IMG/VR virus record: IMGVR_UViG_3300020156_000001 | Coordinates: 170,321 to 234,320 of that record | Direction: 5' to 3' (one strand) | DNA length: 64,000 bases | From: a virus | Taxonomy: Duplodnaviria > Heunggongvirae > Uroviricota > Caudoviricetes | Shown: positions 5,464 to 43,984 of the stretch, one piece after another | Numbering within the stretch: the first letter of the stretch is position 1 | Layout of the letters: the number at the start of each line of letters is the position of its first letter | Made by a program: the position numbers and the translations under genes | Notes under the pieces: model-generated | What the model saw: only the letters and a program-made list of their open reading frames with translations | Databases searched by the model: none | What the model was told of the DNA's origin: nothing

Positions 5464-5555
5464 GTTGCCCATTTGGTCCGCGTGGAGGGAATCGAACCCT
5501 CTCAAGAACGCTAATCTGGCGCTAAAAGGCTTATAAGACCTCTCTGACTACCAAG
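5464..5555 (-). tRNA. tRNA-like gene, 92 nt with encoded CCA, long variable region, non-canonical D and anticodon arms
   Basis: Minus-strand reading CCGCGTG ... GAGGG-TTCGATT-CCCTC-CACGCGG-A-CCA. Perfect 7-bp acceptor and canonical T-arm. Possible anticodon loop CTTATAA (UAU) on a G·U-closed stem. The D-arm does not fold canonically. Confidence 0.5.
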
Positions 5556-5589
5556 TCTCACGCGGTTATAGTCGCGTCGACTGGATGCG

Positions 5590-10876: not shown

Positions 10877-12229
10877 ATGGCAACACTATCTAGCTCCTCA
10901 TATATTCTCGATACTTCACGTGAATACTCTATCTATGTTTGTGAAAACCGCGCAATTCCAAAAGTTGCCGATGGTCTCAAGGACGCACAACGCAAGGCAC
11001 TTTGGCTAATCCGTAACAAAGCGGAAAAGGTCAAGACTGTATCTTTGGCTGGTGAAATGATTCAATCCGGCTTGTACTTGCACGGTGACGCTTCCGCAGC
11101 GGGCGCTGTTTCAATGCTTGCGGCTCCTTTTGTAAACAACGTGCCGCTGCTCAATGGTATTGGTACGTTTGGTACTCGTACTGCGCCGGTTGAAGGTATT
11201 GGTGCTCCACGTTACACCTACGTAAAGCGTGGCTCCGCTTTGACTCAGCTTATGCTGCCGGACTTGGATATCGTTCCTCTTAAGGAAAACTATGATGGCT
11301 CCGTAAAGGAACCCGTACACTTTCTTCCACTAATCCCTACGGTTCTCCTAAATGGTGTTTCGGGTATTGCGGTGGGTTGGTCTACTGAAATCCTACGTCG
11401 CAAGTTTTCCGATATTGTTGAAGCTTCGATTGCAGCTTTGGATGGCAAGAAGATCAAGCAGCTGGTGCCACATTACGAGCGTTTTGATGTCAACGTAAGC
11501 CATCTCGAAGGCAACACTTGGAACATGAATGGTCGTGTGGAACTTGTGGACACTTCTACAATGCGTGTTACCGAGCTTCCACCGGATCTAACACTGGCAA
11601 AGTTCAAGGAACGTCTTAACACACTTGAAGACGAAGGCAAGATCAACACTTACACGGACCGCTCCACAAAAACCATCGACATCACTATCAAGATGGCACG
11701 TGGCACGATTTCCGGCTGGGATGAAGAAAAGGCCATTGATTTCCTAAAGCTCAAGCAAAAGAAGACCGAACGTATCGTTGTTGTGGATTGGAATAACTCC
11801 AGCATCAAGCAGTACGACACGGCTGAAGAAGTTGTGCAAAGCTTTGTTAAGTGGCGTTTGGGTTGGTATACAGTACGTTACGAATATATGCTGGCAGAAG
11901 ACGAGTACTCGTTGAACTTCTGGAAGGCAGTGAAGGCTTGCTTTGATGGTAAGCTGCCTGCAAAGCTTCCAACACTTGCCAACAAAGCAGCGATTCAAGA
12001 TGAAGTTATCAAGCTGACCAAGGGCATCAATGTTGATGAGTCGCAAAGTGATAAAATCGTTAGCTTGCCATCATTCCGTTGGGCCAAGGACGCGTATCAA
12101 GACGTTCTCGACAACATTGCACGTTTGGAAACAAACATTCAAACCTATACGGCTACACTTGCTGATCCAAAGGCATTGAAGGCAATTTACAGGGATGAAC
12201 TCGTAGCGTTGTCCAAGCTAAAGTTCTAA
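10877..12229 (+). CDS. DNA topoisomerase II medium subunit (T4 gp52-like; GyrA-type breakage-reunion)
   Basis: ADGLKDAQRKALW ... GDASAAGAV is GyrA/ParC N-terminal-like. Immediately follows the gp39-like gene. Confidence 0.75.
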   Translation: MATLSSSSYILDTSREYSIYVCENRAIPKVADGLKDAQRKALWLIRNKAEKVKTVSLAGEMIQSGLYLHGDASAAGAVSMLAAPFVNNVPLLNGIGTFGTRTAPVEGIGAPRYTYVKRGSALTQLMLPDLDIVPLKENYDGSVKEPVHFLPLIPTVLLNGVSGIAVGWSTEILRRKFSDIVEASIAALDGKKIKQLVPHYERFDVNVSHLEGNTWNMNGRVELVDTSTMRVTELPPDLTLAKFKERLNTLEDEGKINTYTDRSTKTIDITIKMARGTISGWDEEKAIDFLKLKQKKTERIVVVDWNNSSIKQYDTAEEVVQSFVKWRLGWYTVRYEYMLAEDEYSLNFWKAVKACFDGKLPAKLPTLANKAAIQDEVIKLTKGINVDESQSDKIVSLPSFRWAKDAYQDVLDNIARLETNIQTYTATLADPKALKAIYRDELVALSKLKF

Positions 12230-18226: not shown

Positions 18227-18474
18227 CTCAACTTGAACAGCAAGCGATCATTTTCCGTCTTGAACGCAATGGTTTCACAACTCGTATACGCGACTTGTAT
18301 ATTCTCGTCTGCAAGCCATTGTTTTAGTTCTGGTCGAACAACGTTGTCCCGTTGCGCGTTGTAAGTGGCACCGTTCCAAACCAATCTGGTTAACGTTTCG
18401 AATATCTTTTCCTGTGGAAATTCAAGTTCAAAAGGAAATTCCACTTCTCGATCGACCGTACTAAGCTGCATCAT
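18217..18474 (-). CDS. LFKLRW-family small protein E (85 aa)
   Basis: C-terminus ENDRLLFKLRWA. RPELKQWLADEN. Confidence 0.55.
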   Translation of the reverse strand: MMQLSTVDREVEFPFELEFPQEKIFETLTRLVWNGATYNAQRDNVVRPELKQWLADENIQVAYTSCETIAFKTENDRLLFKLRWA

Positions 18475-20005
18475 GTTCCAATTTCCTCAACATTGCAGTG
18501 GCCTTGTCCTTGTACAGGAACAAGGTTGCATAATCCACATTTGGGCCCAGATTTGCATGGGCCATCATAAAATCATTACCGGCTTCAACACTTTTTGCCA
18601 CAATTGGTTCCAACCGGTCCATAGCGATCTGCATCATCTCGTGCATATTGTGCCAGTAGGCGTAGCGGTCCTGTTCGTACTTGCTCCACGTGTAATGGGA
18701 AACTTCCCAAACATACAATTGGGACTTGTCGGGAAACACCTTATCAAAGTGCGCCAACATTTCCTCGCATGGATGATGACCCTGCGCCCAACGTGTTTTG
18801 AAGAACCGCAGGATCTGGCCCATTTGTGGACCCGGTTTAACGCCACGTGCCATCAGATCTTTACCAGTGATCGTAAAGCGATCGAACGTGCTGTTATAGA
18901 TGACTTGGTTATCTTGATCCAGCATTTTGAATGCGATGGTTGAGATAATGTTGGCTTGCGTGATATGCTCTGCAACCATTACCGCAGCAGCTTCTAATTG
19001 TGGATCCGAACCATTCGTAGTGTTCAAGTAGAAGTGACTTTGGATCGCTTCTACGCTATCGAATGGGCACGTCATGTAAAAGCTGATGATCTTGATCATG
19101 TAGTCGTAAGCACGACGCTCGCTTGAAGAAAACTTCAAACGTTCTGCCACAATTTCGTACGACTTTGGATCAATATTGCAGACCAACACTGCCATGACCA
19201 ATGCCTCAACCATAACGGGATGGCATCTCAGGCGATCTTCAAACCGCTTCATCGCCATCAAAATGGTATGGCCAACACGCCGATACTCTGGACCGTTGAT
19301 TGTTTCCCCGTTGCCCAGGGTTTCCATCAGCTTTGTGCCAAAGACCAACCTCAATGCGTCTCCCGCATGTGGCGCGGTCAGGATCTTTTTCAGTTCAGCC
19401 CAAATACGTTCACCGCTCAACCCACGCATACCCTCATGAACCCATGGCATGTTGAACAGCTGGTAGATGCTTTGTGGAGCCTCAGAAACAGCCGTCTTTG
19501 CAAAGAACCTCACATATCGCCAAACACGCAGGTAATCCTCACGAACACGTTCATTGGGATCACCAACAAACATGATAACACCGCGTTTCAAATGATCGCG
19601 ACCTTCAAAGTAGTCGTAGATGTGGCCGTTGATGTCCATGCTCATCGCGTTCATTGTAAAGTCGCGACGTTCTGCATCCAATTGGAAGTCTCGAGTGTAT
19701 TCAACCTTGGCATGACGGCCATCGGTTTCAACATCCACACGCAAAGTGGTAACTTCAAAGGGCTCACCGCCCATCATAAACGTTACCGTGCCGTGCTGCA
19801 AACCCGTTGGGATCACATACAAACCATGCTGTTCAGCCAGCGCCATCATTTCATCTGGCGTAGCATTGGTGCACAGGTCGATATCCTTTGGCTTCAAGCC
19901 CAAGCACAAGTCACGAACGGCGCCGCCAACAACACGAATTTCGTATCCGCTGTCGACGAAGATTTCCGCCAATTTCATCAAGTACCTGTTGTTGAATACC
20001 AACAT
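18461..20005 (-). CDS. class-II tRNA nucleotidyltransferase (CCA-adding enzyme / poly(A) polymerase family)
   Basis: Head-domain motif RVVGGAVRDLCLGLKPKDIDLCT (GGxVRD ... DxD). 514 aa with a long C-terminal body. Confidence 0.8.
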   Translation of the reverse strand: MLVFNNRYLMKLAEIFVDSGYEIRVVGGAVRDLCLGLKPKDIDLCTNATPDEMMALAEQHGLYVIPTGLQHGTVTFMMGGEPFEVTTLRVDVETDGRHAKVEYTRDFQLDAERRDFTMNAMSMDINGHIYDYFEGRDHLKRGVIMFVGDPNERVREDYLRVWRYVRFFAKTAVSEAPQSIYQLFNMPWVHEGMRGLSGERIWAELKKILTAPHAGDALRLVFGTKLMETLGNGETINGPEYRRVGHTILMAMKRFEDRLRCHPVMVEALVMAVLVCNIDPKSYEIVAERLKFSSSERRAYDYMIKIISFYMTCPFDSVEAIQSHFYLNTTNGSDPQLEAAAVMVAEHITQANIISTIAFKMLDQDNQVIYNSTFDRFTITGKDLMARGVKPGPQMGQILRFFKTRWAQGHHPCEEMLAHFDKVFPDKSQLYVWEVSHYTWSKYEQDRYAYWHNMHEMMQIAMDRLEPIVAKSVEAGNDFMMAHANLGPNVDYATLFLYKDKATAMLRKLEHDAA

Positions 20006-37589: not shown

Positions 37590-38177
37590 ATGATTGCACT
37601 TCTTCAAATTTTGGGAGTTTTTGCAGCGGCATTGGGTTTTGCCGCAGCACTTACAAACCATCTCTTCCTAGGGATTCTCTTCCCAATCGGCGCCACACTC
37701 TTTTACATTGGCTATGTTCTGCGCAACCGTGCAACTGAACGTACCATTAGGGAAGCGCAAGCGGATGTTCGTACCCGTTATCCCGTTACTTCCATCTATC
37801 GTCCAATCGCGGCCACTGGTATGACCACACCACCGCCAATGCCAAACAAAACACCACGCCGTAAAGATGCACCGCTTCGTTCCGCAGTTATGTTGGATGA
37901 TGAACGCAAACGCCAGCAGCGTGATGAAGAAGAGCGTGATCGTCAGCGTCGCAACAATGACACCGTTTATACGGATAATTCGGCCGGCTGGATGATGATG
38001 ACTGGTGCGATGGATAACAGCCGGAATGATGATGACGATCGCAAAGTTGTAACTCCCTCATACAGTGAACCCAGCAGCTCAAGCAACGATTCCTATAGTA
38101 GCGGTTCCGATGGCGGCTATTCCGGTGGCGGCTATTCCGGTGGCGGTGATGGCGGTGGCGGAGGTGGTGGCGACTAA
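37590..38177 (+). CDS. membrane protein with Gly-rich C-terminal tail
   Basis: Two N-terminal TM helices. Basic/acidic central region. C-terminus SDGGYSGGGYSGGGDGGGGGGGD. Confidence 0.5.
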   Translation: MIALLQILGVFAAALGFAAALTNHLFLGILFPIGATLFYIGYVLRNRATERTIREAQADVRTRYPVTSIYRPIAATGMTTPPPMPNKTPRRKDAPLRSAVMLDDERKRQQRDEEERDRQRRNNDTVYTDNSAGWMMMTGAMDNSRNDDDDRKVVTPSYSEPSSSSNDSYSSGSDGGYSGGGYSGGGDGGGGGGGD

Positions 38178-38183
38178 AAGGTT

Positions 38184-38212
38184 GACATCTCTAGTTGGGT
38201 CTGTTTAAATAC
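38184..38212 (+). promoter_or_regulatory. sigma70-like promoter (TTGACA-17-TTAAAT) for the tmRNA precursor
   Basis: The -35 and -10 hexamers with 17-nt spacing lie directly upstream of the acceptor-piece sequence. Confidence 0.5.
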
Positions 38213-38221
38213 GGATGAAGC

Positions 38222-38281
38222 TGTTGATACAATCTCAATAGTTGCTGCAGGACTGGGGAGCGTTACCCCACGCCTCCACCA
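38222..38281 (+). ncRNA. ssrA: two-piece (permuted) tmRNA, 3' acceptor piece, ending ... CGCCUCC-A-CCA
   Basis: UGGGG-AGCGUUA-CCCCA hairpin (T-arm analogue) at 38254..38270. Acceptor 3' strand CGCCUCC at 38271..38277. Discriminator A. Encoded CCA at 38279..38281. The 5' boundary is approximate. Confidence 0.75.
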
Positions 38282-38383
38282 CAAGCAGATGCGCACTTTC
38301 GTGCGTGGCGGGTAAACGGTTAAATCCAATCCGGCGGGCACCGAGCGGTGTCCTGGTAGCGGTCGCTACAATCTGCTTATGAT

Positions 38384-38563
38384 GGGGGCGAAGTAGGATC
38401 GACTGGGCGACGAACGGTGCGAGTAGGTTTCCGGCATGATACCGCCGTTATCGGGTCGAAAAAAGTAAATGCAAACGATAACTCCGTTGCATCCCAGCCG
38501 GTAGCTCTCGCTGCCTAAGTTGGATGAGCTTTAGTGGATACGCTTGGAAACAGGACCACTCTT
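38384..38563 (+). ncRNA. ssrA: two-piece (permuted) tmRNA, 5' coding piece with tag reading frame ANDNSVASQPVALAA*
   Basis: 5' end GGGGGCGAAGUAGGAUCGACUGGG closely matches canonical tmRNA 5' ends. GGGGGCG pairs with the upstream CGCCUCC, including a G3·U wobble. Tag ORF GCA AAC GAT AAC TCC GTT GCA TCC CAG CCG GTA GCT CTC GCT GCC TAA at 38471..38518. Confidence 0.85.
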
Positions 38564-38588
38564 AAAACCGGCTTCGGCCGGTTTTTTG
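38564..38588 (+). terminator. intrinsic terminator (CCGGC-UUCG-GCCGG + U6)
   Basis: GC hairpin followed by TTTTTT. Confidence 0.8.
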
Positions 38589-38912: not shown

Positions 38913-39872
38913 ATGGTATTCAGACCAAATGAACTCAAGTTTACAGACTTGATGGCTGCCACACCCCATGGTACTTTGGTGGTGAATTCCCAAGGGCAAA
39001 TCGTTTTCTCAAACCATCAGGTTCACAACCTGTTTGGCTTTACTGAAGCAGAACTTCATGAGCAAAACGTAGACATACTGGTACCCAATGCCGCGCGTGG
39101 CTTCCACCACAATAATCGGAACACATATAATGCGGCTCCGCATCCACGAAGCTTTCCTGCGTCTGCAGGGCTGCATGGACAGCACAAGGATGGATCGCTG
39201 ATTCCCGTAGAGATCAGCTTGACGCCATTTGAAACAACTGCTGGAAAATTTACCCTAGTCAACATTATCGACATTACTGCCCGTAAAAAGGCAGAAGATA
39301 TGCGCGAAGTGTTGATCAAGGAACTAAACCATCGCGTAAAGAACAACATGGCTGTGGTAACTTCAATTGCCACGATGACACGCAAGTACACGGACAATAT
39401 CGACGACTTCTTTCTCGCTTACTCTGGCCGTATGAACGCGTTGAGTGCGGCGCATGATCTTGTGGCTTCCATGTTTTGGGATGACACTGATGCAAAAAGC
39501 TTGATTGTCAACGTGTTACGACCATTCCATCAAGCCGAACGTTTTCATATCTCTGGTGGTTATGCTAGAGTTCCTGCGAGTTCGGCAGCCACACTTGCTA
39601 TTGTTTTTCATGAACTTGCCACAAACGCTCTAAAGTACGGTTCATTACGAAGTGCCGAAGGACGTGTTGACATTTCATGGGAATTCAACAATAACAATGG
39701 AGTGGAATTCAATTGGATTGAAACTGGAGGGAATCCAATTGAACGTCCTACCAAGCGGGGGTTTGGTACGACAATGATTGAACGTACCATTACCAAAAAT
39801 TTCGGCGGCACCATCGACATGGATTATCGTCCAGAGGGGTTGCATTGTAAAATCGTTACTGAAAGGCTCTAA
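38913..39872 (+). CDS. PAS-domain sensor histidine kinase, HWE / HisKA_2 family
   Basis: N-terminal PAS (VVNSQGQIVFSN). ELNHRVKNNMAVV phospho-acceptor box. HELATNALKYG ... ISWEF ... NWIETGGNPIE gives the H, W and E residues of HWE kinases. Confidence 0.8.
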   Translation: MVFRPNELKFTDLMAATPHGTLVVNSQGQIVFSNHQVHNLFGFTEAELHEQNVDILVPNAARGFHHNNRNTYNAAPHPRSFPASAGLHGQHKDGSLIPVEISLTPFETTAGKFTLVNIIDITARKKAEDMREVLIKELNHRVKNNMAVVTSIATMTRKYTDNIDDFFLAYSGRMNALSAAHDLVASMFWDDTDAKSLIVNVLRPFHQAERFHISGGYARVPASSAATLAIVFHELATNALKYGSLRSAEGRVDISWEFNNNNGVEFNWIETGGNPIERPTKRGFGTTMIERTITKNFGGTIDMDYRPEGLHCKIVTERL

Positions 39873-43387: not shown

Positions 43388-43416
43388 TTGACGCACGCAT
43401 AGGCTTTTGCTATAAC
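43388..43416 (+). promoter_or_regulatory. sigma70-like promoter (TTGACG-17-TATAAC) upstream of the tRNA-like gene
   Basis: Near-consensus hexamers. The predicted transcription start coincides with the 5' end of the tRNA-like helix. Confidence 0.5.
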
Positions 43417-43423
43417 AGGATTG

Positions 43424-43527
43424 TGAGCAGATGGTATATGCCGGTGTGCCCCCAGTTAGTACAGCGAGAGCCCGTAGGGAGAGTGCTCGAAACCCGGGAG
43501 ATATGAGTTCGAATCTCATTCTGCTCA
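43424..43527 (+). tRNA. tRNA-like gene with no encoded CCA and an oversized body, possibly an intron-containing tRNA or tRNA-like element
   Basis: 8-10 bp terminal helix TGAGCAGA/TCTGCTCA. Canonical T-arm ATGAG-TTCGAAT-CTCAT. U8. Possible 6-bp/4-nt D-arm. About 30 nt more than a standard tRNA between the D-arm and the T-arm. Confidence 0.4.
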
Positions 43528-43603
43528 CACTGAAACGCCTAAACATGCGATTCCGAAAAAGCGATAGTGGTCTGTAGTACCACAAACGCCAAAGGAGAAA
43601 CAA

Positions 43604-43984
43604 ATGTTTTACGGTGCTTTCAACTCTGCAGAGGACGTATTTTCTAACTTCACCGTCTCTGACGATGATCGTAAGGATGTAAAGATTCTGTGGGCTTCTT
43701 ATGAGAACGAAAACTACGAAGGCTCTGCTGGAGTGGTGTTTCTCAAAGAAGGCAAGATATTTTCTGTGTACGGTGGGCACTGCTCATGTCACGGGCTGGA
43801 AGGTCAGTGGGAACCACAGGAAATAACTCTTGCAGAAATGCGGCATTATTTGGACAATAAGGCAACCCCTTATGGTACAGATTTTGGTGCTGCATACCAG
43901 CAGATTCTCATGCTGTTGGACAATGTGGATACTTCGGTACTCACGGATGACCAGATAGTAATGATGCTGCGCTTAATAGGCTAG
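43604..43984 (+). CDS. hypothetical protein (126 aa)
   Basis: AAAGGAGAAACAAATG start context. Confidence 0.5.
   Translation: MFYGAFNSAEDVFSNFTVSDDDRKDVKILWASYENENYEGSAGVVFLKEGKIFSVYGGHCSCHGLEGQWEPQEITLAEMRHYLDNKATPYGTDFGAAYQQILMLLDNVDTSVLTDDQIVMMLRLIG

Follow-up and report, generated by a model that had tools for sequence, protein, structure and literature searches.

What kind of RNA is encoded at positions 43,388–43,527 of a 64,000-nt stretch of phage DNA (IMG/VR record IMGVR_UViG_3300020156_000001, positions 170,321 to 234,320; the whole stretch is referred to here as the window), where a promoter runs directly into a structure that has the arms of a transfer RNA (tRNA) and a body too long for one? 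The window is part of the ~480-kb genome of a Sinorhizobium-type jumbo phage, and an earlier note, based on the sequence alone, had proposed an intron-containing or otherwise atypical tRNA, perhaps akin to the selenocysteine tRNA (tRNA-Sec), or a tRNA-like regulatory RNA. Our analysis identified a tRNA-shaped gene of 103 nt on the plus strand (43425..43527, including discriminator A43527), as indicated by ARAGORN in intron mode, the minimum-free-energy (MFE) fold, shuffle controls and a local Rfam match. Its architecture as a tRNA, the site and length of an insert within it, the conservation of its promoter, its absence from the sampled relatives and the lack of a recognisable intron signal are all demonstrated below. 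We consider it marginally probable that the element is a lineage-specific, tRNA-derived and insert-bearing gene at the start of a transcript, which would give rise to a non-decoding tRNA-like RNA of ~104 nt—either a relic or a mimic of a tRNA.

A tRNA scaffold with an enlarged anticodon arm

The outer parts of the element are those of a standard tRNA. The 5′ acceptor strand GAGCAGA (43425..43431) forms seven Watson–Crick pairs with positions 43520–43526 (TCTGCTC), and the helix extends from 7 to 9 bp when G43423 and U43424 pair with C43528 and A43527. The resulting terminal helix, GTGAGCAGA (43423–43431) with TCTGCTCAC (43520–43528), thus contains nine perfect base pairs, in line with the perfect helix of 8–10 bp described in the earlier note. 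U8 is present at 43432, as had been noticed, and is followed by G9, a D-arm and C26 in the ARAGORN drawing (43432..43450). The canonical D-stem (43434–37/43446–49) comprises G10–C25, U11·G24, A12–U23 and U13·G22, two of the pairs being G·U, and its loop, AUGCCGGU, bears A14 (43438) and G18G19 (43443–44). The MFE fold draws an alternative D hairpin with a stem of 6–7 bp and a 4-nt loop; the 6-bp D-stem with a 4-nt loop proposed previously therefore holds as a drawable thermodynamic alternative, although the canonical D-arm fits as well and is the one used by ARAGORN. The T-arm AUGAG-UUCGAAU-CUCAU (43503..43519), apparent in the sequence, to Rfam and to ARAGORN, is indeed of textbook form, with G53–C61, U54, U55, C56 and A58. 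The 3′ acceptor strand UCUGCUC is followed by the discriminator A and by CAC (43520..43530)—i.e., no CCA is encoded, as already remarked.

The departure from a standard tRNA is confined to the anticodon arm. ARAGORN assigns the 5′ strand CCCAG and an anticodon-type loop UUAGUAC to 43451..43462, the 7-nt loop containing U33, the anticodon A34 G35 U36 and A37, and the 3′ strand CCGGG, together with a 4-nt variable loop AGAU, to 43494..43502; the stem includes one A·C mismatch (A43454 vs C43495). Between these two segments lies an insert of 31 nt, AGCGAGAGCCCGUAGGGAGAGUGCUCGAAAC (43463..43493, plus strand), positioned in the anticodon loop by both intron-mode ARAGORN and the MFE fold. With a C at both 43462 and 43493, it could equally be placed at 43462–43492, that is, at position 37/38 rather than after position 38. 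The D region and the T-arm are separated by 52 nt (43451–43502) and not by the roughly 69 nt stated at first, as compared with ~22 nt in a class I tRNA; the excess of ~30–31 nt agrees with the oversized body of about 30 nt that had been pointed out. The insert itself folds into a weak hairpin of 4 bp, a 4×4 AGAG/AGAG internal loop and a terminal CCC-GUA-GGG, and the internal CGAG…CUCG pairing proposed previously corresponds to 43465–68 and 43486–89. The element as a whole adopts a cloverleaf-like MFE fold with an over-long third arm (−32.1 kcal/mol). A 5-bp stem with a 7-nt anticodon loop is absent from the primary transcript and appears after in-silico removal of the insert alone. An 18-mer of the insert occurs once in the window, which also contains no paralogue of the element, and a repeated or mobile hairpin was dropped on the grounds of this uniqueness.

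Standard tRNA finders do not report the element. ARAGORN with default settings returned a tRNA-Ile and a transfer-messenger RNA (tmRNA) from the window, and Rfam at curated thresholds returned the tmRNA alone, while a permissive Rfam scan yielded a local match to the tRNA family (RF00005) of 17.4 bits vs a gathering score of 29. When introns were allowed, ARAGORN added just one call for the whole 64 kb—tRNA-Thr(AGU) at 43425–43528, with 73 nt plus the 31-nt insert—and the 73-nt sequence obtained by removing the insert in silico was called as a normal tRNA by default ARAGORN. A tRNA model thus scores the region, a point on which the earlier note had made its proposal depend, in the intron mode of a program whose standard settings miss it.

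Could such a resemblance have arisen by chance in an intergenic region? The silence of the default tRNA finders and of Rfam at curated thresholds would be in keeping with this idea, as would a fold stability with a z-score of only −1.44. However, when the window was shuffled 150 times with its dinucleotides preserved (9.6 Mb), ARAGORN in intron mode made eight calls with introns of 137–2382 nt and none with an intron of 60 nt or less. Moreover, a custom scanner that requires a perfect 5-bp T-stem with G53–C61 and a TTCRA loop, together with an acceptor of 7 bp, U8 and a D-loop GG, matched once in the same 9.6 Mb of shuffled sequence, and in the real window it matched exactly this element. All universally conserved tRNA positions outside the anticodon arm are present. 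Chance therefore has a negligible claim, and the element is tRNA-derived beyond reasonable doubt. The suggestion of an atypical tRNA or tRNA-like RNA is borne out to this extent by ARAGORN; its selenocysteine component is not. Y-RNA/YrlA, tmRNA or ribozyme identity was discarded, as there was no Rfam match at E ≤ 10. In YrlA, the RNA ends do not lie on the acceptor stem, unlike in the element.

A selenocysteine-type tRNA, with an 8/5 acceptor/T geometry and a 6-bp D-stem closed by a 4-nt loop, was suggested by features that can in fact be drawn: a terminal helix of 8–9 bp and a long D hairpin (7 bp with a 4-nt loop), the latter being present in the MFE fold. The likeness to bacterial tRNA-Sec ends there. 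No loop of the element contains a UCA anticodon, the extra hairpin sits within the anticodon arm and there is no long variable arm, the tRNA-Sec model RF01852 gave no match at E ≤ 10, and these bases can just as well be read as a canonical 7/5 tRNA with G18G19. On these grounds, we regard a tRNA-Sec as having next to no probability.

Promoter, mRNA leader and genomic setting

The position of the element on its transcript is set by a sigma-70-type promoter (43388..43416, plus strand), which is read directly from the sequence and confirms the near-consensus TTGACG-17-TATAAC described previously. It consists of TTGACG (43388–43393), a 17-nt spacer and TATAAC (43411–43416), with TGc ahead of the −10 hexamer forming an extended −10 element; a consensus promoter scan did not list it because the −10 hexamer ends in C. 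Six bases separate TATAAC from the paired structure, and the transcription start is predicted at ~43423–43425, 0–2 nt ahead of the tRNA body. The same promoter and the same divergent gene pair were found at seven syntenic loci (those of Sinorhizobium phage Phosso, L003, L005, L007, L009 and L011 among them), and TTGAC and the TA of the −10 hexamer are invariant across six relatives (alignment A1), in which the promoter heads the same gene. Promoters of this kind lie 3–14 nt upstream of 8 of the 57 tRNA genes of Phosso, and units composed of a promoter, a tRNA and an open reading frame (ORF) are ordinary in this lineage. We found no plus-strand terminator between the element and the gene starting at 43604, and we infer on this basis that the element and the downstream operon are co-transcribed.

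The remaining mRNA leader (43552..43597, plus strand) was delineated by comparing the leader folds of five phages. Its UCC (43552–54) pairs with the GGA of the Shine–Dalgarno sequence GGAG (43594–97) around an inner hairpin, GUGGU-CUGUAGU-ACCAC (43567–83), that differs from its Phosso counterpart (GUUGC…GCAAC) by two compensatory pairs. A hairpin sequestering the Shine–Dalgarno sequence, with UCC or CUCC opposite GGAG, is common to all leaders, including those of L002, L003, L005 and L007, and the relatives carry a small 5′ hairpin in place of the tRNA-shaped module of this phage. The leader structure probably serves to control translation of the gene that follows. This gene (43604..43984, plus strand; PHROG 8792/21421) encodes a 126-aa protein with an invariant H-C-S-C…H motif, for which neither a Pfam match nor a PDB sequence match was found. 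Its AlphaFold model is confident, with a predicted local distance difference test (pLDDT) score of 85.5, and a fold search with it gave no match (best E 0.3). Some records label the family ‘integrase’. Among 109 loci with homologues of the 126-aa gene (L054–L162), 30 have tRNA genes within 1.5 kb, and in ten of these a tRNA is located 17–190 nt upstream, five being tRNA-Thr.

An identical copy of the 126-aa protein is encoded on the 480,361-bp metagenomic contig ERZ27257314 k141_474802, and the protein of Phosso (469 kb) is 63% identical to that of the window. The intergenic region is 256 nt long in the window vs 141–145 nt in Phosso, L003, L005, L007, L009 and L011, and no tRNA-like element was found at the same site in any sampled relative. 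The element is therefore specific to this lineage and forms part of the 5′ leader of the operon. Searches for homologues elsewhere gave a consistent picture: a blastn comparison of the 261-nt region with 50,697 phage records returned nothing; the T-arm was the sole matching part of the in-silico spliced 73-mer; and exact-pattern scans with the acceptor/T, D-arm, insert and variable-plus-T segments, run on prokaryotic genome, viral and metagenome collections, revealed no homologue. The D-arm and insert patterns had chance matches in coding DNA only, the insert being found otherwise as chance 16-mers, and the T-arm pattern retrieved 32 unrelated tRNAs with nothing shared outside the pattern. A search for strain variants of the source contig returned a single place, ERZ27257314 k141_474802. 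The start of the Phosso leader, GTGAGTTCG (L002 5931–5939), equals GTGAG (43423–27) plus the T-loop TTCG, and the remainder aligns poorly. This sequence could be the deletion scar of a lost tRNA, between TGAG repeats, or a product of chance; parsimony favours gain of the element here over loss in the relatives.

The surroundings of the element are those of a lytic phage. Its minus-strand flank holds tail-fibre-type phage genes (Mtd_N, Collar) and its plus-strand flank small ORFs. The Mtd_N domain upstream had prompted the idea of a template RNA of a diversity-generating retroelement, which was discarded, since no reverse transcriptase was seen and the N-terminal domain alone matches. The window consists of phage DNA throughout, with the synteny of a lytic jumbo phage to Phosso, and for this reason a prophage attachment-site fragment beside the tmRNA gene was likewise dropped as an identity for the element. 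In relatives of this group, ~66 tRNAs are accompanied by a tmRNA, RNA ligases and a CCA-adding enzyme (PMC11242549; Phosso annotation). The CCA-adding enzyme to which attention had been drawn at 18461..20005 is real, with matches to Pfam PolyA_pol (1e-30) and to the PHROG tRNA nucleotidyltransferase (3e-59), and is encoded on the minus strand; this phage enzyme could finish the CCA-less 3′ end of the element.

Two further tRNA-related genes and a signalling pair are encoded in the window. The tRNA-Ile(UAU) (5474–5565, minus strand; 92 nt) encodes its CCA, and its variable arm, AGCGC-CAGAUUA-GCGUU, is class-II-like. Another 92-nt tRNA-Ile(UAU), with a different body, is found on an unrelated 146-kb viral contig (L020 2461–2552, minus strand), and the variable arms of the two share the 13-mer CGCCAGATTAGCG, which may be a conserved identity element. 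The tmRNA (38164–38564, plus strand) is of the two-piece (permuted), alphaproteobacterial type, with the tag peptide ANDNSVASQPVALAA. Additionally, a PAS/HWE histidine kinase (38913–39872, plus strand) is encoded inside this lytic jumbo-phage genome, and the ORF next after the histidine kinase contains a response-regulator receiver domain (L052 6274–6627).

Possible readings: spliced threonine tRNA, relic or mimic

If the 31 nt were removed, the element would become a genuine tRNA-Thr(AGU). Under this explanation, a protein-dependent pathway new to bacterial viruses—an endonuclease and a phage RNA ligase, for example—would excise the insert, and the mature 73-nt tRNA would receive its CCA, be charged with threonine and read ACU, or more codons than ACU if A34 were modified. 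Several features speak for it. The spliced parse is a canonical 73-nt tRNA whose 7-nt loop contains both U33 and A37 and whose variable loop has 4 nt; the insert occupies the classical 37/38 or 38/39 position; and the tRNA body displays no decay. tRNAs with A34 (Phe-AAA and Ser-ACU) have been reported in the related phage AP-J-162 (PMC11242549), the lineage encodes both RNA ligases and a CCA-adding enzyme, and other phage tRNAs contain short inserts in the anticodon loop, one of which, the Leu-UAA of L061/L062 (32 nt), encodes its CCA and is located in an array.

Above all, however, no recognisable mark for the removal of the 31 nt could be found. In a bulge–helix–bulge (BHB) motif, a 4-bp helix lies between two bulges of 3 nt each, so placed that excision restores a 7-nt anticodon loop; an exhaustive search of the 104 nt for such a motif with a 4/4 central helix returned none, and the nearest relaxed motif near the anticodon would leave a loop of 9 nt, not 7. 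A group I intron was rejected on size, the insert having 31 nt vs roughly 200 nt or more, and no Rfam intron or ribozyme matched the element at E ≤ 10. No member of a splicing endonuclease family was recognised among the 27 ORFs of the window that were scanned, with 64 of ~480 kb visible. Nor does the element resemble a threonine tRNA in particular. The identity set for threonyl-tRNA synthetase (ThrRS) in E. coli comprises G1–C72, C2–G71, G35 and U36. The element has G1–C72, G35 and U36, and its 2–71 pair is A–U, in contrast to the C2–G71 found in 8 of 9 compared phage Thr tRNAs; it matches Thr tRNAs at 39–49 of 72 positions, and tRNAs in general at a median of 43. A reader of ACU would moreover be redundant with the Thr tRNAs of the relative Phosso (one CGU, one GGU and two UGU genes). 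CCA is encoded in 55 of the 57 Phosso tRNAs and in the tRNA-Ile of the window, and the element is atypical for the lineage in lacking it, in the A·C mismatch of its anticodon stem and in the G·U pairs of its D-stem. Finally, it is absent from all sampled relatives, and full-text searches of the papers covered gave no report of short spliced introns in phage tRNAs. Splicing of the insert is thus possible and unsupported, and we regard a working, spliced tRNA-Thr as distinctly improbable.

Our slight preference is for a young relic or mimic over a working Thr tRNA. Under this favoured reading, the transcript would start 0–2 nt upstream of G43425 and the RNA would fold into the L-shape of a tRNA with an over-long anticodon arm of ~48 nt. 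RNase P would then trim the 5′ end, a 3′ endonuclease of the RNase Z or RNase E type would cut after A43527—freeing the RNA from the mRNA—and the phage or host CCA-adding enzyme would add the CCA. The product of ~104 nt would remain unspliced, and therefore could not decode. As a relic, it would stem from a tRNA gene that was disrupted not long ago and whose transcription and processing continue; as a mimic, it could serve as a decoy, be bound as a ligand by tRNA-binding factors or give the mRNA a structured module at its 5′ end.

A number of considerations weigh against this reading. Transcription, processing by RNase P and RNase Z, and CCA addition are steps that we infer, the enzymatic ones from the known recognition of the acceptor/T minihelix by these enzymes. 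The stability of the fold does not differ significantly from that of shuffled sequences (z = −1.44). The helices and tertiary positions are intact everywhere outside the anticodon arm, and an intact scaffold is what would be expected of a working intron-containing tRNA rather than of a long-dead pseudogene. The RNA ligases annotated in relatives leave room in this lineage for an unconventional cut-and-rejoin pathway, and ACU is the top Thr codon in the genes of the window (31%), so that an ACU reader could be useful. Only one sequence is available for the element and its insert, which leaves both relic and mimic as candidates.

The mimic deserves consideration in its own right. In its specific form, the insert would be the working part of a functional non-decoding RNA, for instance by exposing the purine-rich UAGGGAGAG on a tRNA scaffold, and the RNA would be a decoy that draws off tRNA-binding enzymes or the host defence nucleases directed at tRNAs, or would act together with the adjacent H-C-S-C protein. 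The intact scaffold is consistent with such a role, as are the homologues of the protein found in or beside tRNA clusters (the 30 of 109 loci given above, ten with a tRNA closely upstream) and the heavy investment of jumbo phages against attacks on tRNAs (PMC7824862). In addition, analogous genes of Rak2-like phages, described below, adjoin homologues of the same protein, and purifying selection on them is strongest in the inserted part. Yet a covariance model of these Rak2-like RNAs misses the window at E ≤ 10, which makes the resemblance one of analogy only, and the hairpin of the insert is weak, its sequence occurring elsewhere only as chance 16-mers. Furthermore, the closest relatives have the protein without the RNA, and in Yersinia phage fHe-Yen9-04, conversely, the RNA is present and no copy of the protein is annotated, so any coupling of RNA and protein is loose. 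On balance, a functional mimic of this kind is possible, if on the unlikely side.

The consequences differ with the outcome. If the element is spliced, bacterial viruses would own a protein-dependent route of tRNA splicing. A stable, non-decoding mimic would add to the evidence that jumbo phages use tRNA shapes outside translation, with bearing on the arms race around tRNA-cleaving defences. A young pseudogene would be ordinary, and would show why annotation pipelines label such genes inconsistently, as they do in the Rak2-like phages (Val, Leu, ‘Pseudo’ or nothing). Standard tRNA finders miss the element in every one of these cases, which implies that counts of tRNA-like genes in phages are underestimated.

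Related genes in other phages and comparison with known systems

Insert-bearing tRNA-like genes are found in other phages as well. The Rak2-like jumbo phages CBB, GAP32, BF, the pEa_SNUABM phages, fHe-Yen9-04, XbC2 and Kaldavass carry a tRNA-shaped gene of 118–121 nt with an enlarged middle (L163 929–1049, L164 939–1058, L165 923–1041, L166 903–1021, L167/L168 905–1023 and L125 1961–2079). It is annotated as ‘tRNA-Val AAC’ in CBB, ‘tRNA-Pseudo-ATA’ in fHe-Yen9-04 and ‘tRNA-Leu’ (Leu-TAA) in pEa_SNUABM_12, and is unannotated in GAP32, BF and XbC2. The gene forms a local peak of conservation, with an identity of 0.75–0.93 vs about 0.55–0.65 in its flanks; its T-stem shows compensatory changes, and substitutions and indels are restricted to hairpin loops. 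Like the element, it has canonical acceptor, D and T parts, a much enlarged middle and no encoded CCA; its carriers are jumbo phages from a neighbouring clade, in which it adjoins a homologue of the 126-aa gene. It differs in that two hairpins make up its extra part, of which one is similar to a long variable arm, and in lying downstream of the 126-aa homologue, whereas the element of the window lies upstream. A covariance model built from seven members (R1) gave no match in the window at E ≤ 10, yet it matches class II tRNAs of Phosso. Homology was rejected on this result, and the Rak2-like RNA is considered an analogue of the element.

Shorter inserts occur in other phage genes. A class II tRNA-Leu(UAA) with an encoded CCA, found in a phage tRNA array (L061/L062 2587–2699), is interrupted by a hairpin insert of 32 nt that separates U34 from A35, at the site of the group I intron in cyanobacterial tRNA-Leu. 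A tRNA-Ile(UAU)-like gene (L019 5763–5855, minus strand; also L021) has an 18-nt insert at 37/38 that contains CACCUCC, the core of the anti-Shine–Dalgarno sequence of 16S ribosomal RNA, and a further insert-bearing phage tRNA gene, at L032, represents a 48-nt case. We also observed tRNA-like sequences of ~62 nt, with an acceptor, a D-arm and a T-arm and with the anticodon arm cut to CCGGGAUGG, in L022, L026, L029, L031, L034–L036, L044, L045, L047 and L050 (e.g., L050 about 11395–11460). These sit between tRNA-Lys and tRNA-Asn in the tRNA arrays of soil phages and are missed by ARAGORN. Such cases raise the prior for function of RNAs of this type, the Rak2-like gene being a precedent in jumbo phages for a tRNA-shaped RNA that is both non-canonical and functional; the function of the present element is not shown thereby. 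Together with the element, the Rak2-like genes, L061/L062, L019/L021, L032 and the ~62-nt tRNA-likes would all be candidates for a recurrent, undescribed kind of non-decoding phage RNA, in which a scaffold with full acceptor, D and T arms passes through the tRNA-processing machinery and its anticodon arm is enlarged or replaced by a lineage-specific hairpin. Such an RNA could divert defences aimed at tRNAs by serving as their decoy, or could have the H-C-S-C protein associated with tRNA clusters as its partner. We consider the existence of such a kind doubtful; in a bolder variant, the inserts would be true introns handled by a phage-borne cut-and-ligate pathway.

Among known systems, the closest in arrangement are the dispersed, promoter-proximal tRNA genes of Phosso. 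These too directly follow a sigma-70-type promoter and precede ORFs from which no terminator separates them, and RNase P together with 3′ processing would be expected to release them; the element differs from them in its 31-nt insertion, in the absence of an encoded CCA and in having no orthologue in relatives. Other tRNA genes co-transcribed with mRNA include those of the thrU-tyrU-glyT-thrT-tufB operon of E. coli and the tRNA cluster of T4. The BHB-containing pre-tRNAs of archaea and eukaryotes, with introns at 37/38, share with the element a short insert by the anticodon and a CCA that is not encoded, and an AGU (A34) threonine anticodon is a eukaryotic habit; the element, in contrast, has no in-register BHB, a bacterial host and no recognised splicing endonuclease. 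To our knowledge, short anticodon-loop inserts free of a ribozyme are textbook matter for archaea and eukaryotes, not for bacteria or their viruses. Group I introns, as in the tRNA-Leu(UAA) of cyanobacteria, the tRNA-Ile of Azoarcus and the tRNAs of Patescibacteria, offer a precedent from the bacterial world for an interrupted anticodon loop, but they measure roughly 200 nt or more, as compared with 31 nt, and possess a ribozyme core that the element lacks. Finally, non-decoding, tRNA-shaped modules cut from a longer transcript are exemplified by mascRNA, which derives from MALAT1. The t-elements of plant mitochondria (PMC1920247) belong to the same category, and both kinds lack the full canonical set of D/T tertiary positions or have a reduced anticodon arm, whereas in the element of this jumbo phage the set is complete and the arm enlarged.

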